IMG/VR virus record: IMGVR_UViG_3300030330_006525
Coordinates: 121,579-185,578 of that record
Strand: one strand, 5' to 3'
From: a virus
Lineage: Duplodnaviria; Caudoviricetes
DNA length: 64,000 nt
Position 1 is the first letter of the stretch; every line of letters begins with the position of its first letter. The notes beneath the pieces were generated by a model. It was not told the DNA's origin, made no database searches, and saw only the letters and a program-made list of their open reading frames with translations. The translations under genes were made by a program, and so were the position numbers. Of this stretch, positions 189-55,804 are shown piece by piece.

Positions 189-1394
189 TTAGTAGTCCAA
201 TCTAACTCTCATAGTTAGTTCGTTTGTGGGGTCTTTTCGTAGAGGTTCTGAAACTTTGGCAATTGCTAATAGTTCATTGTCAGAGGAATATAGGCCTACG
301 CTTGTAATATAAGATATAGGCTGGTCTTTTCTTTCGTTTTTGACAACAATCTTACTTGAGTTCAAATATGTTGGATTTGAACTGTAATTGTAATCACCTA
401 ATTGAGCACGACACATATAAATTGTTGAATTTAACTCAACAGTATTATTAAAAGTAATATTCCTTATTCTATTTCTGAGCCCTCTTGCCAAATTTGGTAT
501 TGTAGCTGTATAAATTTCAGTTTTTGTGCCTGATAGCGAACCACCATTTCCAGAAGATGTTAATTCTAATCCAGTTCCTGGAAATTTGGCGGTTTCTAGA
601 AGATTGTCATTAAAAATAGAGGAGGTCAAAACTACAATACCGGGCTGATAGAATATCAAGCCCACTGGCAAACTAAGAGCTTCTGCTGTGTCAGTGCCTG
701 GATTACCGCCTGTTGCTGTGTCGACAATCCCGTGTTGAGCGGCAGTACCGCTGTCGTCTGAGCCCGACATATAGAGAAATCCATATTCACCAACAGTGGC
801 ATTAACTCTAAAACTGTCCGCACCGTTGTAAGTTACAGTCTGTCCTTTTTCTGCGACCGCGACATCTCTTATTACTGCAGAACCTGTAAATGGATTAGTA
901 TAACTTCTAGCAATTCCCAATGTTAGATTAAATGTGCCCTTTTTAATCTCATCTTTGACTAATAGTCTAGAGAAGTTAATGAAGTAACACTCGTTTATTT
1001 TTGTGCCGCCGGCAGCAATATTTCCATCTTGGTCAAACTGGATACCGTAATTTTGTCTCTTTTTGCCACTACCAAGCGAACCAGAGGTCACAAAGCCCAT
1101 AAGCATTTGACTATATAATTGATATATTCTTCCTTTATCATTTTTGCTTATAGTGTGTGGCGCTGAACTTCCTGTAAAGGCACCAAAACTTATATCCATA
1201 ATATGATTTGCAGATGAACTAGCGTGAGGATAATCAAAAATTGATTCGTAAAGATTGTGAGAAAAGGTTTTTACATTTCTGTCACCATATATCGAACCAG
1301 ATAAAATAGAGCCTGTTATTGGAATATATTCATGGAGCCTTGTTCTGGACTTTACAATATCGTTGGTTGTTAGCGTTCTAAAGGTTGTTGCCAT
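189..1394 (-). CDS. Putative virion (baseplate/tail-fibre attachment) protein, paralogue of 1396..2610
   Basis: 401 aa. The C-terminus YITSVGLYSSDNELLAIAKVSEPLRKD resembles the 'ExGLYD.DG.L.A.A' end of phage tail-collar/fibre (DUF3751-like) domains. Lies in the structural operon. Confidence 0.65.
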   Translation of the reverse strand: MATTFRTLTTNDIVKSRTRLHEYIPITGSILSGSIYGDRNVKTFSHNLYESIFDYPHASSSANHIMDISFGAFTGSSAPHTISKNDKGRIYQLYSQMLMGFVTSGSLGSGKKRQNYGIQFDQDGNIAAGGTKINECYFINFSRLLVKDEIKKGTFNLTLGIARSYTNPFTGSAVIRDVAVAEKGQTVTYNGADSFRVNATVGEYGFLYMSGSDDSGTAAQHGIVDTATGGNPGTDTAEALSLPVGLIFYQPGIVVLTSSIFNDNLLETAKFPGTGLELTSSGNGGSLSGTKTEIYTATIPNLARGLRNRIRNITFNNTVELNSTIYMCRAQLGDYNYSSNPTYLNSSKIVVKNERKDQPISYITSVGLYSSDNELLAIAKVSEPLRKDPTNELTMRVRLDY

Positions 1395-1395
1395 C

Positions 1396-2610
1396 TTAGT
1401 AATCTAACCTCACTCTTAGAAACAATTCATTAGTAGGGTCTTTTCTTAAGGGTTCAGAAAGTTTTGCAGTTGCTAAAAGTTCATTATCAGCTGAATATAA
1501 CCCAATTGTTGTGACATAGGACCGAGGAATGTCTGATTTTTGTTCTTTGACTCTTATTTGACTTCCGGATAAATAAGTTGGGTTTGAACTGTAATTAAAT
1601 TCATTGTGATTCATTCTGCAGAAATATACAGTTGAATTTAGTTCTGTTGTATTGTTAAAACTGATACTTTGTATCCTGGACCTAAGAGCAGAGCATGCTT
1701 GGTCAATTGTGCCTCTATCTACCATTCTTGCTGCAGTGGTCTGATGGCTGGGAAATTGTGTAAGATATACACTTGAGTCGGTAATCGCTGGTTCGCCGGC
1801 TGGAGACCCATTTAAAATTCCATCTTTATCCTGCGTAAAATCTGGAGCATTCGGATTACCTTTTTTGGAAAAAATCTTGGTATAATCTAACACAACAATT
1901 CCTGCTTGATAGTATATCAAGCCAACTGTACGGTCAGCCGCAGGAACACTGTTATCAATAGCGCCATCGGTTCCATCTTGAGCTTTAAGAAACCCGTATT
2001 CTCCAGCTGGTGAGTTGGATCTAAAATTATTAGTCGCGCCATCGTCAGTAATTAATATCCTGACATTGAAAGCTGTATTCAACTCTTCCTGAACTCCAAG
2101 AGTTAAGGAAAAACTACCTTTTTTAATTTCATCTTTTACCAATAGGCGAGAAAAACAAATAGCTGCAACATCAGCTATTTTATCTGAATGGTCTACATTG
2201 GCGGTTGCAAAATTTCCATCTCTATCAAATTTTCTAAGATTTCCGTTTTCATCGTATCCAACTAAAATCTGAGATAGTTGGTTATAAACATTTAACTTTT
2301 TCTCAGCTTGAGTATCCACAAGGCTGTTGCCTTCAGTATAAACACCAGCATTGCTCATTGAGCCGGTCTTAAAACCAAAAGTAATGTCAAACAAATGATT
2401 AGCAGATGAACTAAGATGTGGATAATCGTAAACAGATTGAAACATACCATGACTATATGTTTTAATGTGTGGCTCTGCTGAGCCTGTAATTATTGTTTTG
2501 TTCCCATAAGAACCAGATATTAATGAACCTGTTATTGGTATAGCTTCGTGCATCAAGCTTCTGCTGCTTGTTTTGTCGCTATTTGTGAATGTTTTAAAAG
2601 TACTAGCCAT
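1396..2610 (-). CDS. Putative virion (baseplate/tail-fibre attachment) protein, paralogue of 189..1394
   Basis: 404 aa. Shares blocks with the neighbour: IPITGSxxSGS, FSRLLVKDEIKKGxFxLTLG, GEYGFL, VGLIxYQxGIVVL, and the C-terminal SEPLRKDPTNELxxRVRLDY. Confidence 0.65.
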   Translation of the reverse strand: MASTFKTFTNSDKTSSRSLMHEAIPITGSLISGSYGNKTIITGSAEPHIKTYSHGMFQSVYDYPHLSSSANHLFDITFGFKTGSMSNAGVYTEGNSLVDTQAEKKLNVYNQLSQILVGYDENGNLRKFDRDGNFATANVDHSDKIADVAAICFSRLLVKDEIKKGSFSLTLGVQEELNTAFNVRILITDDGATNNFRSNSPAGEYGFLKAQDGTDGAIDNSVPAADRTVGLIYYQAGIVVLDYTKIFSKKGNPNAPDFTQDKDGILNGSPAGEPAITDSSVYLTQFPSHQTTAARMVDRGTIDQACSALRSRIQSISFNNTTELNSTVYFCRMNHNEFNYSSNPTYLSGSQIRVKEQKSDIPRSYVTTIGLYSADNELLATAKLSEPLRKDPTNELFLRVRLDY

Positions 2611-2621
2611 TATTTAAACCT

Positions 2622-3635
2622 TTACGATGGATTCGTGTTTCTTATAAAGCGCACTGGGATATCAATGCTGTATCCAGTTGTCACTCCTGTAACTCTAGCT
2701 ATAGTGTCGATAAAGTCACAATTAGCCACAGTGCCTCCGCCACCTATAAATGAGACGCCACTAGAGCCTAATTTTCCTAACTTGCTATACAAACTTGTTG
2801 ACGTTTTTGCTGCTTCTGAAGCAACTAATCTAAAGCCGAATCTTGTGCCTAAAGGACCTTGATGTACCAATTGACTGGTATCTCTACCTAGCTCAACATC
2901 GACAGAAGTCAATGTTCGTATAGGCGTAACATAATCTGTATCAGATGTTCCAAAAGCATAATGTGCAATATTATCGTCATCTATGAATATCGGCGTTTTG
3001 CGGCCAGTTGCATTTCTGTGAGGGACAATATCATCTAAATTACTTTTTGGTGATAAATTGGGTGCAGCAACTCTTGCGATTCTGTGGTCAACTTTCAATA
3101 TAAATTGTGTTTCTCTTAAATCTGGGTCAATTGGCGCTGTAACATCTTGGTCCTCATTTGCGTCTACTATACCCTGGTCTAAAATAATTGCATTTTTAGG
3201 GTATCCATCGCCGCCATGGCCATACATGACACCATCCTCTTCAGTGGCTGCAACTTTATCGCTATCAAATAGTTTTTTGTTAGCTACAATAACAAAGGTA
3301 TTTTTGTTATCGCCAGAGGCAACAAAGGGAGAGTGCTTGGTATTGATAAGAATCTTTGGTAGATAAAGGATATTTGTTCTACCAATTGTCATTAATTTAG
3401 ATTTCATGACAGACGTATTGTTCGTGAAGGCCTCAAAAACTGGAGTTTGTAAAATTTTTAAATCTTGGTATGCTGAGCCTGAAGTGTGGTTTGCTTCGAA
3501 AAGACCATAATTAATTTCGTCATCTCCTAGAGCAAACTTAACAATTTTAAAGTCGCCTCTAGCCATTCTCATTCGACCTGTATCTGTTAAAACTGCATCG
3601 AGCAAAATGTCGCCCGAGTTATCAAGAAATGCCAT
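2622..3635 (-). CDS. Putative virion structural protein
   Basis: 337 aa. The N-terminal DAVLTDTGRMRMARGDFKIVKFALGDD resembles the 'LT..G...LA.....I...A.GDG' start of tail-fibre/collar proteins. SD-like GAGGT upstream of the ATG. Confidence 0.6.
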   Translation of the reverse strand: MAFLDNSGDILLDAVLTDTGRMRMARGDFKIVKFALGDDEINYGLFEANHTSGSAYQDLKILQTPVFEAFTNNTSVMKSKLMTIGRTNILYLPKILINTKHSPFVASGDNKNTFVIVANKKLFDSDKVAATEEDGVMYGHGGDGYPKNAIILDQGIVDANEDQDVTAPIDPDLRETQFILKVDHRIARVAAPNLSPKSNLDDIVPHRNATGRKTPIFIDDDNIAHYAFGTSDTDYVTPIRTLTSVDVELGRDTSQLVHQGPLGTRFGFRLVASEAAKTSTSLYSKLGKLGSSGVSFIGGGGTVANCDFIDTIARVTGVTTGYSIDIPVRFIRNTNPS

Positions 3636-3678
3636 ATTTTTACCTCTACTTATGTGTTATTAATACTATATCTCATTA

Positions 3679-3686
3679 TAAATAGT
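3679..3686 (-). promoter_or_regulatory. Candidate late-promoter motif ACTATTTA
   Basis: Lies in the largest intergenic gap of the structural region, ~44 nt upstream of the 3635 start. The same 8-mer occurs in gaps at 33639 and 46749. Overlaps an 8-bp inverted repeat (3662-3669/3682-3689). Confidence 0.5.
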
Positions 3687-3728
3687 ATTTTTAATAGTAA
3701 TTTTCTTTTTTATATTTATTATATTCTA

Positions 3729-6700
3729 TCAACCGCTTGAGTAGCCAGTGCCTCCTCCTCCGGGTGAGCCACCACCAGAACTGCCTCCCATTCCTCCACC
3801 TCCAGGCGAGCCGCCTCCAGATGAACCGCCTCCAGATGAGCCGCCGCGGCTGGGGCCAGCAGAAGGTGTTGGATTAGTTATAGCACCTAGTCTATTTTGT
3901 CTAACTGTGTCTGCAAATCTTTGCACATCTTCGCCCATTATAATTTGAGCATTTTCTAAAAAGTTTGCAATGAATTTTTCATATTCTGGGCCGAAAGCAG
4001 TATTCATTCTTGCAAAATCAATATTAGCACTTAAAAGCTGAGTTCTAGCTGCTTCTGCGAGAGTTGCCGGGTCTAAGATTGTCTCATTATTGACACGTAC
4101 ATCTTCTGTAAAAGACAAATTCAAGTCAATTTTCTTTTGCGAATGTTTAGATTTAATTCTTACTTTAAACCTCCTACCTTTAGTAAAAATAGAGCCCTCC
4201 GGACCTGAATTTCTACCAAAAGAGCCCATTTCAGCAACATCGCTCGTTGAGGGGTCATCACCCATTTCAAAAGACCTCTGATTACTGGATGCCCTGATGA
4301 AAAGAAGCCTCTCAAACTTATCGATAAATGTTCTTTGAGCTTTTGGAAAACTGTATGGCCTAACGTCTAAATAACAATAATCTTCATGGTCAATTATTTC
4401 TACCTGATAAACTATTGAAGGATTAGACATATTACCACTTTTATCTATCGCTCTAAATGTATAATAATATTTTATATTTGGAACTACATAATCATAAAAA
4501 TCAGTGGCTGATGCGTTTTCCGATGGAGCTGTGCGAATCATTCTTCCTTTAAAATTTTCATAACTTAGCGGTGCGGCAGTAGTTCTAAAAACTTCGTAAT
4601 TTGTTGGCAAATCATCACTTTCATAAAAAATAGGCTCACCAGCAGGAACACCCTGTATCCTTCTCATATCTTCTATTAACGCACTATCTCGATCTTCTAT
4701 CGCTATTGGGTCCAAACGTCTTTCGCCACTAGTTGCTTGTAGACAAACTTTGAACATATTTTTGTTATCTTTCAGTGGATAAAATTTAACCTCTGGAAAC
4801 ATTGGTGGTCTGTCAATAACAATAATTTCTTTCTCTAGATATGGAATTTCTACAATTTTATAAATTGGCATAGAATTCACAAACAAGCTAACTTGGTTTT
4901 CTTCCAGTCCGTAAGAGTGCATAGCATTTACTTCTTGGAAAAACTCTATACGGTTGCCGCTCGGGCCACGGGTGAGAGATGTTAACATAGAACCATCTTC
5001 TCTGGACAGTACACTGTCATATTTATATTGGGTTCCCACTACAAAGTCATATGCATAAATTCTATAAATATATCTTTGACCGAAGATAATTTGACTATCA
5101 ATAAAATTTATATTTTCAATACCATCACTGTCCATCATATAAAAACTTTGTACAGGGGTGGTTTCTACTCCGCCGTCGTTATCAACTTTATGTTTATCAA
5201 TTCGATAACCAAGAGTTTCAGAATGCGCGAACATCTTACTACCATCTATCAACTCTTTGTAGCTTCTAAATAGTGACCTATATTTTGTATCTATTTTGCC
5301 TTTTAGTGATAATGCTTGTATTAACATTTTGAACTGATTGAAATTACTGATATCTGATTCCATTTTTAAAGGAAAATTCTTAATGTCTATTCCTCGCATC
5401 ATTTCATCAATTAATCTCTGCTTTTCTTCTTTGTTCGAGGCGATTTGGTCTATTAAATCTCTTTGTGTCGATGCCCTGTTGTTAACAGTACGCTCAATAG
5501 TGGCGTTATATGTTTCAAAAGCCTCTCTCAAAGGGTACCGGCGGTCATCGCGACGACCCATAAAGTGTGTGTAACCAGTGCTGGCAGTCGAAAGGTTGGC
5601 CAAAAATCTAGAAATACTGGTGGCGTCGGATAAATTATCAGCATTAGGGTCCTCAACGTTTCTCGAATATTGTTCTTCCGGAAGAGCCTCGAATAATTCT
5701 CTGATGCGTGTCCTAAAAGCGGACTCCAATTGGGCCGCGGCCATGGCTAAATCATTGTTGTCCATTTCTCTAACTTCCTCAACTGTTGCTACCTGACCAC
5801 CGGTATTTCTTATCAGAGATTTTTGAAGAGTTTGTTTATCTTCATAGACGTCACCAAAAAACATGTTTAACCAGTTCATAAAATTAAAAGTTACTATCTT
5901 GTTGCCATCTGTGCCTTCAGAAATTGTTAGTTGTCTTGCTCCGGATGGAAGTTCTCCAGTCTCGTTTGATGTACCTGTAATTACCTCTGCAAATGGCTGA
6001 CCGTTGGTTCTGTCTAAGGTCTCTTGTGAAAGAAACTGTAGAAACATTTTGTCTAATCCTGTTACACTAAGCATTTCTGCCATCGGAGAACCTTGATTTG
6101 TTCCAATATCGAACTCTACATACATTGGAACTTTTACTTTAAATTCATCATTAACTGACTTGAATTGATTTACATCAGAAGCAGTAAATAACATTTTTTC
6201 AAAGAGTCGGTCACCTTCAACTTTCTGCATTTTTTCATAAAAATCATCCTGTTCCTCTCTGGGTAAGTCTTTTACTTTATCTAAAGTGCTTAGTGTATAA
6301 ATTGAAGGTAAGGTCACCTCTCTTTCACCTTGGGAATTTCCATACCTTCTATATTCACTAGTTACAAAATTAGATTCCAATCTAGTAGAAACGGTTAAGT
6401 TCTTCATAGTATTAATTTTTTCAACTTCCGTATCAAAAAACGGCATATCAGTTACAAAGTCAAAATGCTCATAAACCTTATTTGGTGTTACCATATTAAT
6501 GTGATTATTTGGAAATTTAAAAGGATACCTACCGATGCTCTCTCCAAATATATAGCTAGATATATTTGCAAGTGCTTCAGTGATATAAATCCCGCTATAG
6601 GAGCCGACCCTAGCTATGACAGAATCATTAGATTCAACATTAGGATTGAACATATTCACTTCCCTAAAATCAAAAGTAATCCTTTCTTTCAGGCCAGGGT

Positions 6701-7502: not shown

Positions 7503-7504
7503 TT

Positions 7505-10500: not shown

Positions 10501-11005
10501 TATACTTACTGAGATTTCGTCTTATTGAATCGGTATCATTACTTCGAGAATCAGTTAAAAATGAGCCCATACTAGCATTTATCTCAATAGGAAAAATATA
10601 ATCACCATATTGACTCCTAACATTAGTAGTGTTATCAATGCCACTGACCCAATTAGAAACTACTGCTGTTGGTGACATTTTTCCTATTTCAACACGCTGA
10701 GCGTTAGAGACTGCACCTCGTCGGCGTAAGTCTTGCATCATATGTGAAATTCTTTTTTCTGGATTTCTTATTATATTATAAATATCTTGTTCAGAATCTG
10801 CATTTGTTTGTAAAAATATTGAATATTTTATATATTGAGAAAAATCATAATCAGAGCCCCAAAATAAATTACCATTTTTATCAACGGTATCAATTGCTGA
10901 AAGCTCTAAAGTTACTGACATTTCGCTACTGTTCTCGTTCAATATAATTCCATGAGTTTTTATTGATGGTAAGTAGCCCAACATGTCTTTCATTGTGCCA
11001 CTCAT
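7505..11005 (-). CDS. Large hypothetical protein, probably virion structural
   Basis: 1166 aa ORF, TAATG-coupled to the upstream gene, GGAGG SD. No recognisable catalytic motif. Confidence 0.55.
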   Translation of the reverse strand: MSGTMKDMLGYLPSIKTHGIILNENSSEMSVTLELSAIDTVDKNGNLFWGSDYDFSQYIKYSIFLQTNADSEQDIYNIIRNPEKRISHMMQDLRRRGAVSNAQRVEIGKMSPTAVVSNWVSGIDNTTNVRSQYGDYIFPIEINASMGSFLTDSRSNDTDSIRRNLSKYKTVDSEGKAIIQIPAVKTFTISKSDPFYSNFAESKFMSCYIFSIFDFQQLVEDENINNFDIGIADKIGSVLTYDLILKNGSANDVGNIMEYFEADPGTGELVRKIWTGNYHERTLENEGGYIGFQAGTAQNPLDIKLTRRIVRNVKVQDMRGVISKDWSQLGLGADGEEIVEDERNDYSLISGTDEVANFTLPNFSGENPKSAQSRFINYYKNVEMQKFSQGNSVVYGKMILDQTSEGYVNYLFMIDFFDIYMRNSRFAKVNRYLDVASKTGDTINAMDAVRKMVAPSIKVFRRKVKTRKAGTNSFGYADHEGLDEEEPPYLVAEISQIEGSTIASFTSQISNNSDTRDDTESRGSVVRQGTLREINLRTSQNNVRNEFIKSFTGTDFSVDRSGGATYQYYVEIGFIDNTQEFYLNKYKQLLIDINYLETLYETSYQSYDSYERKYDRTSSVWQSFVDNYRDNNIIRLEMTTIAAARDAKRLVKTALHNIVSRVNKILSILYNTNSAAIAEEGEDYDAQAEFDTSGKVTLLDRARIRSLLSPFNSSASPDNQLTFLRFLNHLKTNYGLLLDIDNIPSHRYTENSATSTGNDTGPSRQFTITNFFPEYITPDNTRSYFNLAYFGDIFEDPGSEYGIPVVTSNDLSERIDISADRFVTGQYEKAMKNEVVLEPMFFNSSLIFPQDKPEGFIFHREQQNPINVRAIQNPRIGLSDEDLKNIASSLYQSGLSEINFQTPIPVQKKIDVSTLKDNFARTNIKKSLRQFEKMYTESMREFANELGISLYADHMPMPTALLSDVLRGDDSNNFINELSKLANLSEQKTFFIEEMKNKFTSELGVRAAGSKVGIELIEKFSNLFESMLNTDHDRFYGDLRIDVGYPGVTQPVVEKFPAQIKQFTLTPRHPYSTKQPKTRVVFDTFKIINILNNVNTGDNIKETDENPDMQDFIPMLPSQITNLGLSENEFVLLSLEQYENEDMQIGYSKLSKAPVATKYVLMRGGN

Positions 11006-24000: not shown

Positions 24001-27000
24001 TGATATCCTGGAAAAGTTTGAGTTGTATCTAGTGATGATGCCGTAATCCAAGTATACTGTATGTCACTTTGTGGAATTGGTCTTTGAACAAAAAGATTAT
24101 CATTGCGCTGTACTCTTGTAGGAGCAAGAGGTAATTCATATGCATCTTGCTCTGTTCTTGTGAATTTTGCATTTCTGTTTATTTTATGAAAAGAAGCAGG
24201 TGGCTTGTCGCTATAAACATCTCCAATTGCAGAACCAGACCTAATACCAAATCGCTGTGATTTTTCTGAAGAAAGTAGATTAAGCGTTTCTCTTTGCAAA
24301 AGATTTCGCATATTCATTGAGTTATTCGCTGATAATTCTCCAAAATCTCTGTCTAAATTAGGCCCGCCTCTATGGTCACCTGTTACTGTTCCATCACCAT
24401 CAAACCTTACTGCAAATATATTCTTGACAACTTCTCTTTCTGGTTTTGCTCTCTCCAAGGAAGTGGCGAAAGCAGAAGATGTAAGTTCAGTGGATGTATC
24501 TTTCACAAAACCTTGGTTATTAATAGTTCTACCGGCAGTGTTAAAGTAATCATAAGGATTGTTGAAATTTCCTTGTATTACACTTCCTGTGACCGTTTGA
24601 ATGTTCTTAATATTTACAGGACTCTTTGTCATTCCTTCGCGAGTAACCAAAACATTATTTGGACTTTCTGGTGAAGTGTGTTGTAACTCAAATCGGTTTG
24701 AAGTTATCTTGAGTTTATAACCTTCAATTCTATTTGTGGGGTCAGTTTCTAGCAGATTACCATGGCGATGAGGCTGACCACCAACGTGTTCTTGTGCGAA
24801 CGGACCTTGTAGGGGCACTTCAGTAGTCGGTCCATATGAATCAATATGCTGATTTGTTATTCTAGCTTTTGTAACAAAGGCTGACAATAGAGGCTGGTCA
24901 ATTGATGAGGACATGATAGTAAAAGGAAAAATCAAATCAACATCAGCATCTAAATATCCAGTCGTATTTTCTGTATCTGCTTTTGCAAAAATTCTGTGTT
25001 TCTTATTTGGAACAATTTTATCATTGCAAGAAGCGGTTGCTTGAATGTCTGTTTTTGCTATTGCTATACCGTTATCAGTACCAAATTCTACAGCTGCCTT
25101 ATAAAGGTCTGGCAATTTGTTTGCTGTTGGGTTATTACCAGTACTCAAATCTCTGCTTCTTTCTACTCCAAAGCGATACGGTCTGGATAGTCTTCTTGTT
25201 GCATAAGTCGAACCTGAAACGTCTGTAACCCTTATTCTATTAATTGTCTCTTTTTGATTGTCAATCTTTATATCGCCAGTTCTAAGTTCAGCTGATGACC
25301 TAGGTGCTCTATCTTTCCACCAGAGACAATTATCAAACTCTTCTTTACCTGCACCGCCTGTAAAATTGGAAACTACAGTGTGCCCAATTGAATCAGTGTT
25401 TATTCTATTACCTATTGAGCCAGCTTCAGCTTGAGTAATCGTGACTGTATCAACCCCGTTTGAAACTGCAGTATAAGATGCATCTGTTGTGGCGTTTATA
25501 GCAACCGCAATTGCATTTGCAGCTTTTGTTTTCCCAGAAACACCACCACCGACGCCACTAAAGCCTACAACAGCAGTACCACCAGAGCCACCGCCTGAAG
25601 CTTGCGCTATGCCTCCATTTATAGTGTATGTTGTACTAGTGCCCCTATAATCTACTAAAGTAAACGTGTCTCCATGCTGAATGCCGCCGGCATCAGATAT
25701 AACGATTGTAGCCGTAGCAGTGGCAGTAGCCAATGGAGCATGACCGTGCTCCCAATCATATAACAGCTCGTTAACGCCTCTAATACTTGGAAAAGGATCT
25801 TGGGCTTTCATTTCCAAAGTTGGAAATTTATGCCAATACTTATTTCTCTCTAGCAAGTGACTTTCTATCAAGGTTCTTAAATCATCAACCATATTCGCGG
25901 TTGCCGGTTTAAGATTTGCTATAATTGTACTGATTGCAGAGTCAAACCACTTATAATATTCGAGATATTTCTCAACACTTGGTGTATTTTTAACCCTCGA
26001 AAAGAAAAGGTCTCTTAGTTTTTCCATACTCTTGTATTCTTGGCGGTATTTGTTAACCGGTTCACCGATTAAGTTATTAAAATCAGTAATAGTACCAAAA
26101 AATTTGAGCATCTCAGATGAAATAACGTCATAAAAACTTTTTTCAACTGCAAATAATAGTTCTTGTGGTTTATAATCTCTTCTAAAATTTTCTAAATCAA
26201 AGTCTTCTACTTTAATCATATTTGAACTGTAAACTTGTTCAATATCATTTTTATTAGCAACATTTATATAGCGATAATCAACAATATCTGTGACACCAGG
26301 AAAACCGAAACCTAGACCAGGATGGCTTCTGTTGACAATGTTTCCTAAATATCCATATGCTGGGTCTGTCAAAGAGTCAGAACCAGAAGAATAGTCTTGA
26401 ATTACTATTCCGCCGTTAGCATCTGTAACTCCGCCATTCTCTAAGTTGTTGAAATCCCAATGCAAAGAGAGGGTTTTGTACTTAGGAATATCTAAAATAG
26501 AACCACTATTTTCAAAAATATATGGTTGTTCATATACTTTATTTTGGCCGTAAGAAGAATAAATAGCGTGATTATTAACTTCTTCATTTGTTAACAAGCT
26601 CTGCCAATATCTTACTGAAGAAACCAACACGTCTGTTTGCCGCGTAACGCTACCAGTGTAATTGGTTCTTTTAGCGCCAGCATAAATTTTCTTTTTGTTT
26701 TGTAGTAATGCTTTACCAGCAGTTGCATTGCAAGTACCAGTTGCCTTAAAGCTATCGATTAATTCATCTTGGACATAGTGAACTCCATAAAACTCAATGG
26801 TATAAGTTGCTGGGTCTCTAGAGCCAGAAACTGCATCTGTGAAAGGGTAATCAATTGGCTTGATAGAAACAGCTAATGTCCATTTTTTATTATCGTATAA
26901 ATCAACAATTGTATCAGATGTTATATTGCTAAACAAGCCGCTGTGAGACTTAAGTACAAATTTGGCATCCGGGCTTGCAGAGTTAACTTTTTCTACGTAG

Positions 27001-29516
27001 ACGTCCATATCAGAAATTGTATTTCCGCCAGTCACTGTATTGGTTAATAATAAGGCCGGGTCTGCTCCAGAATTTGCAGCAAAAGCTGTAGTAATCGTGC
27101 CGCTAGAATCGTGAGTTAAAGAAATTTGAGTACCTGAAGCTACAGCTGTTACATTAACTGTTCCACCAGAAGAGCCATTTATTGCGGCTGCAATACGAGT
27201 TGCAAGAGTCTCTGAATTTCCTGATATTGCTATATCAACTAGTGCATCTGTACTGTTATCATTAGCCAGAGTCACTGTTCTAGTAGAACTGCCGTCGCCT
27301 ATTGTGATTGTGTTGCCAGCATGAGCATTAATCATTCCTGCGCCAACGCGGCTGACAGTGATAGAAATTGTGTGAGTAATCGGTAAAACGCTAGCGTATG
27401 TGTTTCCTTTATTGTCCGTTGGTTCATGAAAACCAAAAATAGAACTTTCTGTAAAACCACCATCAACAAAATTTACCGAATCTGCTGCAAACTTCTCCGG
27501 AAACATAACGTCTGCTTCCATTGTAAAAGGTATTGTCTCAAAACCAGCAGCAATACAACTTCGCGCTCTAGAATCATCCGGATCCATTGAACCTGAAGAT
27601 TGGTAGAAAGTCGCAGAAAAATTGTTAATATTATCGAAATCAATGAACGCTTCTCTTTTTGCTGTATATCTAGGAGAATCTTCAATTATGAATTCAGAAT
27701 TTTTTCCGTAAATATTTAACTTTACTACTTCTTCATCAATACCAAAACAGCGAAAAAGATTTCTAAAGGACTTCTCAGTGCCTTTAGTTTTGTATATATG
27801 AGTTAAGTTATTATAGATATTTCTATAGATAAAGTTCTTAACATCTTCCAATTCTTCATCGTATTTTCTCTCGTTATCTTGACCGTGCAATCTTTCTAAA
27901 ACTGACGCATCAGCAAAAAGCTCTGGTGTTAAAAAACCTGCAGACTCTAAAGCCTTGTGTATAAAAGGTGGTGGCTTTGAACCGCTAGAATGCTGAGAAG
28001 ACCTAAGATAATCATTATACTCAATATTTTTGAGAACAGGCAGGGATTTAATTTGTAAAAATGCTGTATCAAAATAACTGGCTAAAATTTGTGTTAGTTC
28101 TAAAAGAAGATCTTTATTCGAACCGTCCTCTCTCTTCATCCACGTTGGAATAGAATTCCAAATCGCAGAAGTGTTTTTTAAGTCATGTTCTTCACCCTTA
28201 TCTGTCAAAGTTTTAAGACTAGAAATATAATCTGGATGGTCGGGATATAATATTGGGTCCTTGAACTCTTTATCTGCTTTACCGCTTAAAACGATTGCAG
28301 ACTGCGTATTTCTAGTGTATGAGTTATAACCTGTAAATGTAGCGTTTGTTAATCTTCCGGAATAATCTAATATTGTTTGGTCAATACTGGAAGTTCCTGT
28401 GATTCCTTCGTTAAATTTATAGTATACACCTAGAGCTGCATTATCGATATGTTTGTTAGTTCCACCTGCAACTTCGCGAAAATAGTTTCTTCCAATTTGT
28501 TCAGCTGTTCTTTTCTCTTTCCAGAATCTGAAATCATCCAAAGAACCGGACAATTTACCATAACCTCTCACTGTTGTTGTAGCGTCGGAGGCAGCAACAA
28601 GACCACCAATAACACCATTTATAGTTGTTGGAATGTGACCAAAACTTGTAATACTAGTAAAATCTTTTGTCTGATTGTGTACACCATCAACATACATATC
28701 TGCTATCAGCTTAGCATTGTCACTGTCATGCTTGATTGCAAATGAATAATGATGCCAATTGCCGTCACAGACTGTTGCAGTTGTAAGAGTTGTGGCACCA
28801 ATCTGCTGAAAATTTGGCCCAACATTACCAGCAGCAGAACCAGATTCATAAGTAATGTGGAAAGGAGACCCGCCGCTGCCAGGGGTTGCCAACTCTATTC
28901 TAAATCTACCATAACCCTGTGTACCTGAACCTGTGCCAACCGTGTAAGCATCGAAAATTACTTCTCTTTTAGTTAAAGAATCAGAGACTAAAGCCGATTT
29001 TTTTAACCAAAATTCTAGAGTATTTCCGTCGATACCAGAAATCTTTAAGTTAGATTCTTGCTTTGCAGACGGGTCATAAACATTCTTTACAGTTGAGCCA
29101 AAGAAAAATATATGTTCTGGAGATGATGATTTTCCATAAACTCCTCCAAATTGAGACCCGACCAAACTACCCCAGCCGGTTGGAGAAAAGTTAACATAAC
29201 CATTTGTTCTTGGATACTTATTTTCAAATAAAAACAAGTCTATATAGGAAGAGCTTGCTTGCCATTCTTCTTTTTCAAAAAAGGTGCCATCGTAAGGATA
29301 CGTACTATAAACTCTTTTAAATGAATCTCTATAATATTTTTCAGCCAGTCCAAAATTAGCAAAATTGGTTGGGTCGGAAAAATCGACAGTAGGCATATAT
29401 CTAGCTAAATTATCAACTTTTTGAGTTACAAACCTGCGACCTTCCGTGCTTCCGGATAATGCTGCTAATGACCTAGATTTGGAACTTTTTTGTTGGAAAT
29501 AATCCTTATAACTCAT
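12027..29516 (-). CDS. Giant (5829 aa) baseplate-wedge (gp7-like)/adhesin protein with LamG, reelin-like, FG-GAP and inserted modules
   Basis: IYKTKGTEKSFRNLFRCFG matches the 'YxxKGT..S...LF' motif of gp7/P2-gpI-type wedge proteins. LamG motifs (TLEFWLK..DGNWHHY..MYVDG..SGSLDDFRFW; FSFFCWVNP..WNLIGF..LYING..FVGQMAEISMFD). Asp-box YSADGGTTW. FG-GAP repeats. Lies downstream of the gp25/gp6 genes. Confidence 0.75.
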   Translation of the reverse strand: MSYKDYFQQKSSKSRSLAALSGSTEGRRFVTQKVDNLARYMPTVDFSDPTNFANFGLAEKYYRDSFKRVYSTYPYDGTFFEKEEWQASSSYIDLFLFENKYPRTNGYVNFSPTGWGSLVGSQFGGVYGKSSSPEHIFFFGSTVKNVYDPSAKQESNLKISGIDGNTLEFWLKKSALVSDSLTKREVIFDAYTVGTGSGTQGYGRFRIELATPGSGGSPFHITYESGSAAGNVGPNFQQIGATTLTTATVCDGNWHHYSFAIKHDSDNAKLIADMYVDGVHNQTKDFTSITSFGHIPTTINGVIGGLVAASDATTTVRGYGKLSGSLDDFRFWKEKRTAEQIGRNYFREVAGGTNKHIDNAALGVYYKFNEGITGTSSIDQTILDYSGRLTNATFTGYNSYTRNTQSAIVLSGKADKEFKDPILYPDHPDYISSLKTLTDKGEEHDLKNTSAIWNSIPTWMKREDGSNKDLLLELTQILASYFDTAFLQIKSLPVLKNIEYNDYLRSSQHSSGSKPPPFIHKALESAGFLTPELFADASVLERLHGQDNERKYDEELEDVKNFIYRNIYNNLTHIYKTKGTEKSFRNLFRCFGIDEEVVKLNIYGKNSEFIIEDSPRYTAKREAFIDFDNINNFSATFYQSSGSMDPDDSRARSCIAAGFETIPFTMEADVMFPEKFAADSVNFVDGGFTESSIFGFHEPTDNKGNTYASVLPITHTISITVSRVGAGMINAHAGNTITIGDGSSTRTVTLANDNSTDALVDIAISGNSETLATRIAAAINGSSGGTVNVTAVASGTQISLTHDSSGTITTAFAANSGADPALLLTNTVTGGNTISDMDVYVEKVNSASPDAKFVLKSHSGLFSNITSDTIVDLYDNKKWTLAVSIKPIDYPFTDAVSGSRDPATYTIEFYGVHYVQDELIDSFKATGTCNATAGKALLQNKKKIYAGAKRTNYTGSVTRQTDVLVSSVRYWQSLLTNEEVNNHAIYSSYGQNKVYEQPYIFENSGSILDIPKYKTLSLHWDFNNLENGGVTDANGGIVIQDYSSGSDSLTDPAYGYLGNIVNRSHPGLGFGFPGVTDIVDYRYINVANKNDIEQVYSSNMIKVEDFDLENFRRDYKPQELLFAVEKSFYDVISSEMLKFFGTITDFNNLIGEPVNKYRQEYKSMEKLRDLFFSRVKNTPSVEKYLEYYKWFDSAISTIIANLKPATANMVDDLRTLIESHLLERNKYWHKFPTLEMKAQDPFPSIRGVNELLYDWEHGHAPLATATATATIVISDAGGIQHGDTFTLVDYRGTSTTYTINGGIAQASGGGSGGTAVVGFSGVGGGVSGKTKAANAIAVAINATTDASYTAVSNGVDTVTITQAEAGSIGNRINTDSIGHTVVSNFTGGAGKEEFDNCLWWKDRAPRSSAELRTGDIKIDNQKETINRIRVTDVSGSTYATRRLSRPYRFGVERSRDLSTGNNPTANKLPDLYKAAVEFGTDNGIAIAKTDIQATASCNDKIVPNKKHRIFAKADTENTTGYLDADVDLIFPFTIMSSSIDQPLLSAFVTKARITNQHIDSYGPTTEVPLQGPFAQEHVGGQPHRHGNLLETDPTNRIEGYKLKITSNRFELQHTSPESPNNVLVTREGMTKSPVNIKNIQTVTGSVIQGNFNNPYDYFNTAGRTINNQGFVKDTSTELTSSAFATSLERAKPEREVVKNIFAVRFDGDGTVTGDHRGGPNLDRDFGELSANNSMNMRNLLQRETLNLLSSEKSQRFGIRSGSAIGDVYSDKPPASFHKINRNAKFTRTEQDAYELPLAPTRVQRNDNLFVQRPIPQSDIQYTWITASSLDTTQTFPGYQHNFTVPHDATTSRFQTELRFISSSDVGSHINGGNRYFGSSNPLSFANSADPLELALYHSFVPTSFVGISTNIFEPVSSSSNILGYPEFITTHRGALSSYIEANYINQSFVGGLPIDNFDETVITNNTNYTGPHGVLNALIHHRGGSYGYPSWKQMRGGEHPIARVLRKENIYTVQVRNRKLSSGGRVPSSRTFNTYMPGNQAVYLGEPENREPIVHTFDREVKNYYEIPVSVRFKPINFAYFGAESGLTVDGLLDEVDSEEFETRWLFPNLNRRNILLAGQLSYGNRISRFANRNLTNLLKDNELTNDTEILDLFVDNLEPAGSVPRPDSFYYTENVYPRENETFRERTRSRTAYMYPFWKENRSDRQTIYKLNLLLDVDFNTNSGAFTYPTTGGQALSASFVVGTGIEFTSVRSDIAAVSGLPGMGIQARKLPVADSSDKVLALSGAASTRARVIAVEGAGCPPALNNRDKFRTAVLNKDFATPCNFSYTFRGATSNDDGYVFDAGGGTWPTPEAEKDLFVQYKVTDGEWITLKQYTNTKNSDGSRPFTGTWHLGEHELTEDIGNVRFRFISRTDKANSAANFTKQDIWLIDNVKVESTTTSNKKFIEENSMGTARLERTVKNVVTMITSSIWPLDARKDFTNLPTNLTHSFRQFSGSQTVLRGGQGQFGEGELQNDYNTWHLGFNQEHFGSPASALYSRRWPQKEEIYSMNFNKSQLLMNPPLDLQFADMPHTDYHWPLIKDKGNFGVFDKIVNDAGPVANKSLASATGSFGYLGFFKIAADSDDVTLVSFGMPQMPFNGGAIGIDAIYEASGSGETITGSNRQHINFSGKNQFVRPPTGQHFNEFVMSQTGSMLTSSLNTALIPQQQLLAHRNTHASQGSFAKTRLYNFVDVHYKKNSSGNGFVTASFMGLHDIVSSVNIADNQFHMVGVGHDPRTRKFYLSIDNNVQSSTYEGGKAVGAIRYSTGNPSNGNTITIISTQGLSKTYEFRSSGSPSAGNVSVAIDGSSATTTYTSLVTAINGASGHNGAIAAELTTKSASEGTVGLVQQIPGATGNTTITTSISGVTKYDFFGGGSGAINSLTSYVPFSYDVDLEEADSHSSYWISSGIVENILGLGKTGAVAGEQFHMGAVVKAHSGNGSHVPTVAEAGTKALVLFGNSNAPHDYDNVATYNDIHGVNALGAFAQSSLWSSSPIIKWMEPAYDKILSPENGNHPAALGDNSLATLLPGGHRPLHHSQLTRRAIFYGSKFNISFDLIKGGANNNAFGLSNSSPASGEDFLITVATSSLGNGLGSSVKASEVLQKSVIDGLYSKVYNDFTGSTTSTISNIGWKTVKLIAADSIPDNSYNSFSFDYTHTSSSAGASIPVNRNCVFRLSHISATGTDGWAIKNFKITVLETADNNNAHETKYTNYRKYQRIVPQDFGLTSHSTHNYSSFPLNFDASGDYVFAPARNVGPGGQVYVFKKIDNSEWVLHQTLVASNGVAVEDAFGRDVAVDGSIAVIGNNLEDTAGTDAGAVYIFELGEDGDWTEKAILTASDGAANDLFGQAVSLSGDTALVGAPSENSGDGAAYIFDRDDAGNWTQSAKLTANDAAANDNFGLSVSIAGDVIAVGSPFDDDGASLAGSVYIFNRSEAGAWSQTVKLTGPGTENDMFGVMAELDKSGNRLIVASVNSGVFIYELQLEGDWLQVANLTTLAEITDVSISGDTAVVGRRDDDTVTTNAGAVHILNRSTAGVWTEIQKIVPDDGFINGKFGQDVVLSDTGELYIGSKNNFYVYKKPTAESLYDQEPGTADTYYYPNISDAGPYQLTALGPNVVIGGAQGPFFEDFATYTHNTTGDVAEPNIGSGTATNRNAQGKWILNYDTSNGTHAAAQPYGGPVFYAKRLTASADHYSFNGYRTAKEKPKNIGFSNHQSKAETPNTYDYNDKVLAFISGSIEPGDVPDNPTSERCRYAILNKSFPTPCGISYKIQSVGATGHENRMNNYLRIDDSHFYCFSGSAIGSPPGRPTHLANHWKTNGYLDTTVKYDRPHEMVRVFQTSSVQGYHAYEKAVALCGVSLPIANIPGYASSGIKNFYNNAFNVGHWRYLEFPREYKTPLQITMKVARAGNAVSGSANYSSSFADMPKHASNHRIHFQYSADGGTTWKSTSFLDSNASRQNKFFTWRPHINNVNTGHGGVHNVADGTYVKIRLLARMHDGGSDQGASFGDANAEAHNKSVWLVSNIMVHPSQSLASGADLFRALPNMGTDGKTTGMYLQYATSKTGPWTTIQEIPSSTFGTQTTNYSANKHTGFGSSTSAVIQKHVNQWEFKRAQITASLGNVYFRWIQPVNTNANFYSYNTRDAWLLKDIFVTNPNNYVFSKSSTSLTSDASHAHGIASSSFVSFDETKNKNKAKFKFTDSTDLSNGFLSIPNNVATYYRDSYEGQIGESLFFNTSSFFEDVTALDKIKEVFNKSTSPWQLLNFYSSKLTSSYTPGEESPGIGKAFLIDTGSVSFAEPKIFTPYASVRGNNIVGYDEVGLTGTEEFDATNYVNAHRVFNNYLGADLSTITVSSVPTSDEHVTTTKQQIAEISANHFGLGDSCRNPQLHTASADNKVPMGVSSSFVEFGLPFNQLNENFDKTGLHLFQVKTSRFYGDTEDRKYSNPTGIETLARYVHTTGSLYSRRKVNEWLSGESKWLAPSSSGLQPFYKDYNEYREELRAVGKDYGLVSEYKASDHMNTYVRDDGINYFRRIDAGPSAPFGRGGLSLTGSSLSSRLGDFWNTHHFTDFMKYFDVIKQGKLPGQPRMTALRCSALLKLLPYEGFYPANRTLQLANLFAEEYNSGSIETNPSVTSAKLSFLSKPFFAPGILYNSIKAGIACDYPVFENRSTISESDRLADGTITDSLLKQKEYGESVKGSFINDSDDTKSHALATYNNYAATQGGSGPRLDVESADRIPFEALINPFVLGDKSIYDNEPHPSASLLYAYSPLVSVDGQISFNKNNVATFTKYSLAMNNFVAETVNFFMEDGKLTSFKSETGPFYVKPSDTNRKHKMRFYVENKDTTVYERESAFGPSVENTLLYRENGGYVAKSGFKPYHPQFLRKNNATAVEFEFTPRESREYSLEEIVSQITASYITDYEVNTNIESYKTDRRQNNSILLKRSFYENSSRQELVIPYNESSMENSFSDNMSKVFRVKDAFFVREDAETGQRHLQKIASDAFDSEFENLRTGGDTATSFTDTSRDPRYRFLLPYENGLQSSLIYPQRNTEDETQFYGDNLFRSEGIWFTKFACLTFTDNFQSNSAELVGNRRLITKISASMTSNASETTAVASPVVKGITNKNANYFSFFCWVNPSDNTSSDNEIMNVFSFGNSSDSFVFRINESSIEISGSGNKNYVVTTNDQMSKESYHEVVRNHWNLIGFTMSISHTRAGNLTSKKVVFDLYINGKFLSETEAEISDDPFYGRSMTMVSPGANPPIKLENYTNNRENPLRLKIGGAVDASDNNNFVGQMAEISMFDIPLKGRRAKKLYRKFSDYFLPETQLRKVFTQEGLGNNLFYYFHMPLPRSGLTRLFNSTRSYQIFRDVDAQRTRGRASFLLANKFFRNTRSRNRIQARMLPRGFAFRSVLNSNYREAMYLNSSFNLFGVQEIQSITIDTNGNTAQSDATNQTKRAWVIQPKWELPVLNFNNTPAIFNEINVSGSVSVVTSSLEYAWKTNDLSKYYIQSSRGLWHQYSKINSGYKARMADGKIRSWERSLIDLCKFDRTEKTIGNVRETKIISEAIVAIPFYRDPRGLRMKPFEARKNTLDAAIRRISQEKLGVDPETLPLTADHPLVIQTRMLDKYVFPPQYDYLTFGYDGQSNPPQIAGGSRRASRVLMYVFEFEAELDKEDLMNIWQNLPPKIAKHGESPQDKVVMHDLSKMMGGERKVPDDIRWAVFKVKRRAEKSYLRKVDDSLYDTEAGNLFKKAVENNPNIITPTIVEGKGPSYNWPYDFFSLIELIKIDSKVIIE
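18660..19670 (-). repeat. FG-GAP (integrin-alpha-like beta-propeller) repeats within the giant protein
   Basis: About 6-7 units, e.g. LTASDGAANDLFGQAVSLSGDTALVGAP...GAAYIF and LTANDAAANDNFGLSVSIAGDVIAVGSP...GSVYIF. Confidence 0.85.
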
Positions 29517-31816
29517 TTATGAACCCTAAATTTAAACCTTTCTTTTTGTTCTGTGTACGTACCATTAACATCATACATAAAACAAATATTGTAAGTAAAA
29601 TCTTCCTTCAACAGTGACATGTCGAAATCAAAATAATTGCCAAAATTATCGTATGAAAGACGACTATACCCCAAACTGCCGGTTGAATATCCGACCACTT
29701 CTAAGTTATCTGTTTCTCTTTCTATTTTATAATAGCCTTTTATTATTGGATATAACTCAGGCGTATTTTGTGCAACTGAATATATGTTTGGTTGCCAATT
29801 ATTTTCTCTAACCGATACTCTGAATTTTATTCTTTCTTTTCTAGAATAGCTATCTTTCAAGTTTGTTATTGAGGTAACAAACTTATCTTGAGGTCCAATG
29901 CCAGAATTATGAATATTTTGATTCATTGTATAGAATTGCTTTATATTAACTGGGCATGTTCCATTATGACCCTTTAAAAGCCCTGTAGTTTCATCTGAAA
30001 TCCACCATTTTTCGTACAAAGTAGATGATGTAACGTTTGTAGGCACAATAAAACTGGCTTTATAGGTGCCAGTTGCAGTCTTAGTGCTTGTTATGAAACT
30101 AGCAGTGTTCTGTAAAGTCGAAACAGGAAATGAAGTGCCAACATTTGCAGAAGAAGACGTAACAGTAACAGTACCAGCTGAATCATGTGTCAATCTGAGT
30201 GTAGAGCCAGAAACCACAGCTGTCACATTAACAGCTGTGCCGAACGTAGTGTCATTGATTGCTGCAGCCAATCTTGTTAGGGCAGTAGCAACAGTCGGAT
30301 TACTCTCCATTTGAACTTGCGATGCGTTGCCGGCGGCACCGTTTTTGAACGTTACTACTCTAGAATTTGTGCCGTCATTAATTGTTAGTGTGGCATCTGC
30401 AATATCAGGGGAAGTAGCATCAATGTTAGATCCGGGAGGTGAGAGCTTCTTGCCCAATACAACGTCTAGCCTCACATCAGTCGTATCTGTGGCCAATGTT
30501 GACTTATTACCAAGTGTTTTATCTGTTGTCAATGTAAAATTTGGAACAGCAGAATTAGGAAAATCCTTTAATTGACCATTGACCCAGTTATAATAATATA
30601 GATTGAAAGTATTATCTGCATTACTTAATTGGCTATTTGCAGTTGAAAGCCTGGCTCTATCATCAAGAATTGAATTATCCCAACGAGCTTCAATCGCTGG
30701 TCGTTTGAAAAAGAATTCAGAACTTCTAGCAAAAAATTTCTTTGTATAAAAAGACCTCTGGTATGTTCCGTCTTCGTAGGCTCCCGACAAAAATATACCT
30801 AAACCAAAGTTTTCTAGCGCCGACTTTGATGCTGTCCCTGTTCTAGTTAAATTACTTAATAACTCTTCGACCAAAGCTGTTATGTCCAACTCAATATCTT
30901 CTGTACCTTTATCTATTGGAAATTTATAAAGGGGTAAAGTTTGACCAGAGGTGTATGCCAAACTCTTGAAATCTCCACCTGGAGTTTGCCATGGAGTGTA
31001 ATTTGAGCCAGTTCTTATTGTAAAAAACTGAATCTGGTCGGGAGTTTGGTCAATTAATGTAGCCGATGCCGTTGGCTGGCGAGATATACCAGCTGTGGTG
31101 TTTAAAACCTCTATAAATCTATTGCTTGCATCAGCAGTTGAGAAGGAGCTTGAAAACTCTGTTCTGTTATTGATTACGGTATTAAAAGTTGTGATTAAAG
31201 CATTAATGTCTGCAGCAGAAGAGATATCTACACGTATATCAGCTTCAGCACCGGCATTTGGTGGTGAGTCATTGCCAGTATCAAACCAAAAATCATACCT
31301 TTTCTTTTCACCATCATAAAGAGATATATAACCATCGTCAAAATGAGACATGGTAGCTGATTTAAATAATATTTTGAGCCGCTGAGCAACGTTATCAAAA
31401 GAAGCAGTAAGCCAGTTTGTTACACCTTTGTGTGTGTAAGACTCCATATCAAGGCCGTATCCCTCGTCCCAAGAAGCCCCTGAAACTGGGAGTACTGTTA
31501 AGAAATAATTCGATGGTAGAGTCTGTGAATGTTCCGCATTGTACATTCTTAAATAAAAATTAACACTGCCACTAGCAGGTATACCTTCTGGTTTTGCCAA
31601 CCCTACTGTTCTAGAAGAAGAAATTTCAGAAAGAGGGAAATCAATCAATATCCTTGATTTCTCCAAAGAACCAGAACTTGCTTGACCAAATATGGAAAAT
31701 GTTTCCAAAATATCAGAATTACCCATATTTGCATCTGTACCTCTAGTAGAGAGGTTAGATTTGAAAGCATTTGTTATAGTTGTATCTTTGTTTATAAAAA
31801 ACTTTTTAATACTCAT
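29513..31816 (-). CDS. Baseplate-associated structural protein (DNRLRE/CBM-like N-terminal domain plus inserted modules)
   Basis: 767 aa. KDTTI..NMGNSDILE..SRILIDF..W.EG.G..RPAIEARWD pattern. Sits between the gp6-like and gp7-like genes. Shares a module with the 5829-aa protein. Confidence 0.55.
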   Translation of the reverse strand: MSIKKFFINKDTTITNAFKSNLSTRGTDANMGNSDILETFSIFGQASSGSLEKSRILIDFPLSEISSSRTVGLAKPEGIPASGSVNFYLRMYNAEHSQTLPSNYFLTVLPVSGASWDEGYGLDMESYTHKGVTNWLTASFDNVAQRLKILFKSATMSHFDDGYISLYDGEKKRYDFWFDTGNDSPPNAGAEADIRVDISSAADINALITTFNTVINNRTEFSSSFSTADASNRFIEVLNTTAGISRQPTASATLIDQTPDQIQFFTIRTGSNYTPWQTPGGDFKSLAYTSGQTLPLYKFPIDKGTEDIELDITALVEELLSNLTRTGTASKSALENFGLGIFLSGAYEDGTYQRSFYTKKFFARSSEFFFKRPAIEARWDNSILDDRARLSTANSQLSNADNTFNLYYYNWVNGQLKDFPNSAVPNFTLTTDKTLGNKSTLATDTTDVRLDVVLGKKLSPPGSNIDATSPDIADATLTINDGTNSRVVTFKNGAAGNASQVQMESNPTVATALTRLAAAINDTTFGTAVNVTAVVSGSTLRLTHDSAGTVTVTSSSANVGTSFPVSTLQNTASFITSTKTATGTYKASFIVPTNVTSSTLYEKWWISDETTGLLKGHNGTCPVNIKQFYTMNQNIHNSGIGPQDKFVTSITNLKDSYSRKERIKFRVSVRENNWQPNIYSVAQNTPELYPIIKGYYKIERETDNLEVVGYSTGSLGYSRLSYDNFGNYFDFDMSLLKEDFTYNICFMYDVNGTYTEQKERFKFRVHK

Positions 31817-55802: not shown

Positions 55803-55804
55803 TT

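Follow-up and report, generated by a model that had tools for sequence, protein, structure and literature searches.

The priming O-linked N-acetylglucosamine (O-GlcNAc) transferase GtfA/GtfB of the serine-rich-repeat adhesins of Streptococcus and Staphylococcus is encoded by adjacent genes for GT-B glycosyltransferases, one of them a GT4 enzyme. It is cytoplasmic and acts on serines spaced by small residues (repeats of the S-A-S and S-V-S type); GtfB is non-catalytic. Autotransporter heptosyltransferases (Aah/AIDA-I, TibC/TibA) O-glycosylate many surface serines of a beta-rich, adhesin-like protein in the cytoplasm; to our knowledge, no [ST]GS consensus has been described for them. Among giant viruses, chloroviruses and mimivirus decorate their outer virion proteins independently of the host by means of virus-encoded rare-sugar pathways and glycosyltransferases, and the products vary between strains. 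The general O-glycosylation sequon of Bacteroidota, D-[ST]-[AILVMT], comprises three residues, occurs in many proteins, is used in the periplasm and needs the Asp. For mycobacteriophages, virion glycosylation by phage glycosyltransferases is reported (Freeman et al. 2023, Cell Host Microbe), with glycans on the C-termini of capsid and tail-tube subunits according to the summary in PMC12619734. Here, we analyse the last 64 kb (64,000 nucleotides, "the window") of the single 185,578-bp contig of an uncultured marine phage (IMG/VR record IMGVR_UViG_3300030330_006525). Its subjects are the tripeptide Ser/Thr-Gly-Ser ([ST]GS), which we are confident is an ordered short motif under selection in outer virion proteins, and an adjacent pair of GT4-type glycosyltransferases, referred to as GT433 and GT419.

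The locus resembles the mycobacteriophage system in that the phage has its own glycosyltransferases plus sugar and methyl-transfer genes beside the structural genes (three glycosyltransferases and a nucleoside diphosphate (NDP)-sugar pathway at 48241-62336). In both cases, capsid and tail proteins synthesised in the cytoplasm are the proposed targets, and a glycan coat on the particle is the proposed result. In contrast to the C-terminal sites of the mycobacteriophages, the candidate tripeptides are dispersed in sheath, capsid, neck, baseplate and fibres of a T4-like myovirus. Like GtfA/GtfB, the phage enzymes form an adjacent GT-B pair, of which GT419 weakly matches pneumococcal Gtf1. Unlike in GtfA/GtfB, however, both phage enzymes keep an E-x7-E box, and the tripeptides are isolated in folded domains instead of forming long Ser-rich repeats. 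The autotransporter heptosyltransferases belong to another enzyme family than the phage GT4 enzymes. Giant viruses, unlike the phages considered here, are eukaryotic viruses, and the chlorovirus glycans are N-linked at atypical sites, that is, at another sequon.

The phage (G000 in the following) belongs to a clade of T4-like phages informally named Far-T4, the hosts of which are Bacteroidota, Rhodothermus and cyanobacteria, plus marine taxa. Its genome codes for a T4-type major capsid protein, portal, large terminase, tail sheath and a gp6-like baseplate wedge protein. The closest cultured relatives are Flavobacterium phage immuto, Microcystis phage Mel-JY01 and Rhodothermus phage RM378 (capsid identity 42-49%). 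These three, G000 and the complete uncultured relatives G001, G003 and G004 (39-47% GC; ~36-60% identity in most compared families) make up the motif-rich phages (n = 7). The motif-poor phages (n = 4) are T4, cyanophage S-SSM7, LR756511 and LR756508.

Over-representation and specificity of the [ST]GS motif

A preliminary description of the window, made from the sequence alone, had counted 6, 5, 5 and 29 [ST]GS tripeptides in proteins of 401, 404, 767 and 5829 amino acids (aa), respectively. These counts are exact; the corresponding expectations are 0.77, 0.57, 1.13 and 7.97, and the sum across the four proteins is 45 versus 10.4 expected. The composition-preserving shuffles that the preliminary description had proposed yielded p <= 0.004 for each of the four proteins, and the 5829-aa protein on its own gave p = 7e-9. 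The excess persisted in local shuffles within blocks of 10, 20 or 40 residues (e.g. 29 vs 8.5-9.6), and a 2.2-2.35x excess was left over a first-order Markov expectation. When all 8000 tripeptides were scanned without bias in the four proteins, SGS came first (27 vs 5.6, p = 8e-11) and TGS second (18 vs 4.8, p = 3e-6). The codons at the 45 sites are mixed, with TCN and AGY serines both being used at the background ratio. The signal therefore lies at the level of the protein, and a DNA-level cause was rejected.

The motif has the ordered form [ST]-[G>A>S]-[S>T], as deduced from a position-by-position test of 30,289 aa of the enriched families from four genomes. At position 1, Ser (4.9x) and Thr (5.3x) are enriched and every other residue remains at or below 1.3x; before Gly, neither Asp (1.0x) nor Asn (0.7x) is preferred, in contrast to ordinary turns. 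Position 2 contains preferentially Gly (5.1x), then Ala (2.8x) and Ser (2.2x), and position 3 Ser (5.1x), then Thr (2.0x). Residues outside these sets reach at most ~1.7x at any position. In the enriched families of each of the four genomes, TGS occurs 19-28 times versus 2-12 times for TSG, GTS, GST, STG and SGT; the anagram SSG is likewise not enriched. The remainder of each of these proteomes displays no preference for TGS over its anagrams. The variants listed in the preliminary description are enriched in the case of TAS (2.8x), TSS (2.6x) and SSS (2.4x), but SAS is merely at 1.0x. Similarly, the hydrophobic flanks noted there are real but modest (x1.5 at position -1, x1.3 at position +3). 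Acidic residues at position -1 are depleted (x0.3), unlike in the Bacteroidota sequon.

Global and local composition and dipeptide bias were rejected as causes on the basis of the shuffles, the Markov expectation and the anagram control. An artefact of chance, of a Ser/Gly-rich composition, of a DNA-level signal or of paralogy is extremely improbable, even though the motif was picked post hoc, the 401- and 404-aa proteins are paralogues and Ser, Gly and Ala abound in some sheath loops. The motif heads the unbiased tripeptide scan not only here but independently in six other phage proteomes (ranks are given below), and neither the above controls nor the mixed codons agree with such an origin, nor does the significance reached by the 5829-aa protein alone.

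A repeat domain or shared sequence context was rejected as well, because the flanking windows are no more alike than controls: with the motif masked, 30 residues on each side gave a mean local score of 20.6, versus 20.7 for control windows. The open reading frame (ORF) of the 5829-aa protein contains LamG-like, FG-GAP (four stretches) and Reelin-subrepeat-like domains; despite these, the excess is found in almost every 500-residue bin, and no [ST]GS lies inside the FG-GAP repeats. The candidate sites are isolated tripeptides, dispersed along many proteins. The earlier proposal of a selected short linear motif, as opposed to a repeat domain, is thus well founded: the motif is order-specific and specific at three positions, its flanks are non-homologous, the excess is spread out and the motif recurs at non-homologous positions. 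As for a sequon, an ordered and position-specific signal is left beyond the controls for composition, local composition and anagrams.

Proteins bearing or lacking the motif

The features of the window are listed in Table 1; all of its large ORFs are on the minus strand. The low counts given in the preliminary description for neighbouring proteins were reproduced, with two motifs in the 3320-aa protein (1.67 expected) and none in each of the 1257-, 1166- and 598-aa proteins. The near-absence of the motif from neighbours is thus literally true, but zero versus about one expected is not significant for a single protein. Across ~80 related IMG/VR loci the depletion becomes clear, the family totals being 0.57x for the 1257-aa and 0.43x for the 1166-aa family versus 3.8-7.3x for the rich families (410-aa, 7.3x; 404-aa, 5.4x; 5829-aa, 3.8x; for the 340- and 337-aa families, see Table 1). 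In the same loci, the SbcCD family is at 0.22x. Among the homologues of the gp6-like protein that were checked, there is one motif in total (in G001) and none in the other five. The portal and the terminase contain no [ST]GS in G000, G001, G003 and G004.

Table 1. Coordinates of features in the window
Feature	Position	Strand	Remarks
Third paralogue, 410 aa	begins at 185, extends past the left edge of the window		3 [ST]GS vs 0.36 expected
401-aa virion protein, huge marine family	189..1394	-	six [ST]GS; one of three tandem paralogues
404-aa paralogue	1396..2610	-	five [ST]GS; N-terminal box P-I-T-G-S-x-x-S-G-S in common
337-aa protein	2622..3635	-	one motif; family mildly enriched, 2.5x
1257-aa protein, motif-free	3729..7502	-	composition resembles rich proteins; family 25 vs 43.7 expected
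1166-aa protein, motif-free	7505..11005	-	family 7 vs 16.4 expected
340-aa protein	11005..12027	-	one motif here; family 6.4x in relatives
5829-aa giant outer baseplate or fibre protein	12027..29516	-	29 [ST]GS, 65 [ST][GAS]S
767-aa protein, Ig/FN3-like sandwiches	29513..31816	-	five [ST]GS; adjoins gp6-like wedge gene
598-aa gp6-like baseplate wedge protein (inner baseplate)	31816..33612	-	zero motifs
3320-aa protein, no known family	34064..44026	-	2 motifs vs 1.7 expected
440-aa protein, M23 peptidase domain	45144..46466		weak tape-measure-like PHROG matches; upstream of 3320-aa ORF
Variable sugar island	48241..58961	-	between glycosyltransferase pair and tail genes
GT433, GT4-type glycosyltransferase	59797..61098	-	E-x7-E box, invariant in GT433 orthologues
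GT419, GT4-type glycosyltransferase	61077..62336	-	overlaps GT433 by 22 bases; E-x7-E box kept

The 401-aa family has more than 7000 database relatives in marine metagenomes. In 120 homologues each, we counted 491 motifs versus 90 expected for the 401-aa protein and 874 versus 123 for the 767-aa protein. Observed versus expected numbers in orthologues of the 5829-aa protein are 35/7.0, 14/2.3 and 22/3.7. G001, G003 and G004 follow the same pattern family by family. Milder excesses occur elsewhere in the genome, namely in the tail sheath (4 vs 1.2), the major capsid protein (2 vs 0.5) and a neck or adaptor-like protein (3 vs 0.4). The top proteins of immuto are annotated as tail spike (26 vs 5.9), tail fibre and tail sheath (7 vs 1.3). 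Avoidance of the sheath core was dropped as evidence for exposure; it is uninformative, since composition predicts less than one motif there.

The orthologues of the 5829-aa protein have lengths of 1800+1199, 3234 and 4246 aa; the outer baseplate giant therefore grows, shrinks and splits among close relatives. A comparison with solved structures yielded one short unrelated sequence match for the 1257-aa protein and none for the 1166-aa protein. The 440-aa protein is probably a tail-associated cell-wall hydrolase.

The motif excess is a trait of one clade

Scanning of whole proteomes ranked SGS first among all tripeptides in G000, G001, G003, G004 and immuto, fourth in Mel-JY01 (behind a GTS repeat) and fifth in RM378. 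Its rank is 100 in S-SSM7, 421 in LR756511 and 4077 in T4. The 21 structural proteins of T4 contain 8 motifs versus 12.4 expected, and its whole proteome 19 versus 27.9; for S-SSM7, the ratio is 1.2x. A general property of T4-like tail proteins was rejected on account of these values. LR756508, whose whole 484 kb were considered, likewise has no excess (119 vs 85.5): the anagrams are flat and both sheath paralogues contain no motif.

Three single observations were made in these genomes. A 1552-aa protein of S-SSM7 (88177-92835) contains 11 [ST]GS versus 3.1 expected (p = 4e-4), in a phage that possesses neither the glycosyltransferase pair nor a proteome-wide excess. In Mel-JY01, adjoining proteins of 805 and 508 aa (635-4591) consist of low-complexity G-T-S/S-G-T repeats and dominate its tripeptide statistics. 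The sheath paralogues of LR756508, each of ~825 aa, are encoded in tandem at 202-209 kb.

Conservation, turnover and structural context of the sites

In the 401-aa family, [ST]GS alternates with [ST]AS and [ST]SS in ~14 semi-conserved columns. Taking the 401- and 767-aa families together, most motifs lie in about a dozen semi-conserved columns, in some of which the third Ser is nearly invariant. Both the 401- and the 404-aa paralogue carry ITGSxxSGS, as had been noted. The Gly/Ser positions of the corresponding N-terminal box, P-[ILV]-T-G-[ST]-I-V-S-G-T-Y, are invariant across more than 100 homologues, and this box may well be structural. Elsewhere, most motif columns are found in one genome only (5829-aa family, 74/87; sheath, 15/17; capsid protein, 8/9). 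In pairwise alignments of the giant proteins, 14 of 44 sites (32%) are shared, 9 are opposite a similar tripeptide and 21 opposite unrelated residues, and a further 38 sites occur in the partner only. Density is therefore kept while positions shift. The positional conservation that the preliminary description had suggested checking thus holds for about one third of the sites; the rest turn over. This is conservation plus turnover in the manner of viral sequons. As for a sequon, too, the occurrence is independent of fold and domain, with gain and loss at non-homologous positions, although the 401- and 767-aa families have mostly conserved columns.

The AlphaFold2 (AF2) model of the 401-aa protein is poor (predicted local distance difference test score, pLDDT, 58), and Foldseek gave no match for it. 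The model of the 767-aa protein has a pLDDT of 69; its fold matches generic Ig/FN3 domains and uncharacterised viral ones, and nothing else. With regard to the surface-exposed turns expected in the preliminary description, the secondary structure predicted in this model has the central Gly in coil at all five sites. The site at residue 48 lies in a disordered loop (pLDDT <50), that at 82 just before and that at 269 just after a strand, that at 536 in a two-residue hairpin and that at 712 in an inter-strand loop. In the model, this placement suits exposed tips and a strand-capping role equally.

It might accordingly be asked whether [ST]-G-S is a favoured strand cap or tight hairpin element, having a small residue between hydroxyls, of the beta-sandwich and fibre domains of this clade and is not modified at all. 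We consider this less likely than the sequon reading given below. The sites of the 767-aa model beside strands or in a two-residue hairpin (and similar ones in the low-confidence 401-aa model), the hydrophobic neighbours, the many conserved columns with Gly as the most constant residue and the interchange of Gly, Ala and Ser at the centre, as where a small residue is needed, are all consistent with such an element. However, the tail, baseplate and fibre proteins of T4 have just as much beta structure and as high a content of Ser, Thr and Gly, and yet contain fewer motifs than expected. Position 1 shows no enrichment of Asp or Asn, the residues that classically form turns in front of Gly, and neighbours of the same composition do without the motif. 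Moreover, the sequence contexts and domain types in which the motif occurs are unrelated, and it was gained independently at non-homologous positions of capsid, sheath and giant-protein orthologues.

The glycosyltransferase pair and the sugar island

GT433 and GT419 are paralogous in their C-terminal domains (28% identity). No sequence match to GT433 was found among solved structures. The best PDB matches of GT419 are BshA-/PimA-type enzymes rather than GtfA; it also matches B736L of PBCV-1 (3oy2, E = 1e-6) and, weakly, pneumococcal Gtf1 (4pqg, E = 1.8e-4). GT419 is conserved across the Far-T4 group, including the motif-poor LR756508. Profile searches detected orthologues of both enzymes in immuto and Mel-JY01, and in RM378 a GT419 with a divergent adjacent GT433-like gene; they detected GT419 without GT433 in LR756508 and neither gene in LR756511, T4 and S-SSM7. 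In total, GT419 plus a GT433-like gene is present in 7/7 motif-rich phages and GT433 is missing in 4/4 motif-poor ones. The motif excess thus tracks the GT433-like gene in 11/11 genomes, with all seven positives coming from one clade. As LR756508 possesses GT419 but no motif excess, the contrast points to GT433 over GT419.

Only five relatives of GT433 were matched in prokaryote genomes (43-49% identity), all of them in metagenome bins. Most likely, contigs from this group of phages were binned there, and the matches provide no independent lineage. Tetrasphaera phage TJE1 has a distant GT419 homologue beside a sugar cluster and no [ST]GS excess, which is uninformative.

The glycosyltransferases and the sugar island are on the same strand as the tail genes and upstream of them. 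The island codes for an NDP-sugar nucleotidyltransferase, an NDP-hexose 2,3-dehydratase, a GFO/IDH/MocA reductase, a DegT-type aminotransferase, two methyltransferases, a PfkB kinase, an epimerase/dehydratase and a third glycosyltransferase (49064-50698). The equivalent slot of G003 (18.4-34 kb) contains three FkbM methyltransferases, a GT11, a carbamoyltransferase and four epimerase/dehydratases, and that of LR756508 a cytidylyltransferase and a GT29-like gene. The stretch separating the glycosyltransferase pair from the tail genes is a hypervariable glycan island. Its DegT-family ORF (53674-54306) comprises 210 aa compared with the 360 positions of the profile; the homologue of G003 has 206 aa and 61% identity, and the short form is therefore conserved and not broken. 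The adjoining ORF of 312 aa (54296-55234) matches no Pfam family.

A gene for a PD-(D/E)XK nuclease (62329-63099) lies directly upstream of GT419, as it does in G003 and in LR756508 (L208:3690-4700); in the latter, a thymidylate synthase and a DNA methylase are found beside it. The linkage of nuclease and GT419 could hint at a DNA-related role of GT419. In the whole 185,578-bp genome there is neither a pyrimidine hydroxymethylase of the ThyA family (PF00303) nor a Pkinase-family kinase, which weakens explanations by T4-style DNA glucosylation and by a kinase. The phage differs in this respect from T4-type DNA glucosylation, though it may modify DNA by another route.

The absence of a Pkinase-family kinase also bears on the possibility that [ST]GS is another type of recognition site, serving phosphorylation or acylation by a host or phage enzyme, docking of an assembly chaperone or decoration protein, or binding to the host surface. 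We regard such a function as improbable. In favour of it, [ST]GS shows the features typical of a short linear motif that is recognised, nothing chemical ties the motif to sugar, and LR756508 combines GT419 and a glycan island with no motif excess. On the other hand, no conserved clade-specific enzymes other than the glycosyltransferase pair track the motif, and the diversity of the hosts makes a host-specific enzyme or receptor unlikely.

A possible sequon for O-glycosylation

We tentatively favour the reading that [ST]GS serves as a sequon at which cytoplasmic GT4 enzymes of the phage itself, together with the variable sugar island, bring about O-glycosylation. In this reading, the motif is kept by selection on outward-facing proteins, i.e. 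the outer domains of the sheath, the major capsid protein, the neck and the outer baseplate and fibre proteins. Soluble phage GT4 enzymes would recognise exposed Ser/Thr-Gly-Ser at the ends of beta-strands and at hairpin tips, in the cytoplasm and on folded or folding virion proteins, and Ser would be O-glycosylated. GT433 is the foremost candidate for reading the motif and for priming, with GT419 beside it. The island enzymes would provide an unusual glycan and lengthen it; in G000, this would be a deoxy-amino, methylated sugar. The outcome would be a phage-made sugar coat on the virion.

The modification sequon suggested in the preliminary description accordingly fits its context of phage glycosyltransferases, an upstream sugar pathway and co-occurrence with the glycosyltransferase pair, but this co-occurrence is confounded by phylogeny. 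Being based on one clade and one within-clade contrast (LR756508), the link could be explained by shared descent. This and several further points weigh against a sequon. Many sites of the 401- and 767-aa families form strongly conserved columns, and hydrophobic flanks and sites at strand ends are what a motif for folding or for a turn would show as well. The tail proteins of 1257 and 1166 aa lack the motif in spite of a similar composition. The glycosyltransferases are of a generic GT4 type, the sequence of which does not reveal the acceptor; they could act on sugars of the host envelope or on DNA instead. The sequence data show the motif, its specificity, distribution and turnover and its association with the glycosyltransferase pair; the modification itself, the residue that would carry it and the enzyme that would attach it are suggested by sequence context, and a literature search for virion glycosylation in this clade found nothing.

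Implications for Far-T4 phages

It is possible, and we hold it with somewhat less confidence than the sequon itself, that strain-variable glycans are attached by GT433 at [ST]-G-S of capsid, sheath and fibres throughout this abundant clade from sea and freshwater, including the cultured phages of Flavobacterium, Rhodothermus and Microcystis. Cultures exist for three phages of the clade, so that the idea is open to direct testing. Even if its role were purely structural, [ST]GS would still be among the most over-represented tripeptides of these proteomes and would mark unannotated outer virion proteins. If the sequon is real, tailed phages would for the first time be seen to possess a protein glycosylation system directed by a sequon, with something like serotypes, and a simple sequence rule would be at hand for predicting exposed, modified phage proteins. 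A very common group of aquatic phages would then carry a self-made sugar coat whose chemistry varies among close relatives. Such a coat would bear on the resistance of the particles to proteases, grazers and host defences, on their adhesion to particles and hosts, and on the question why phages carry so-called lipopolysaccharide or sugar "auxiliary" genes.

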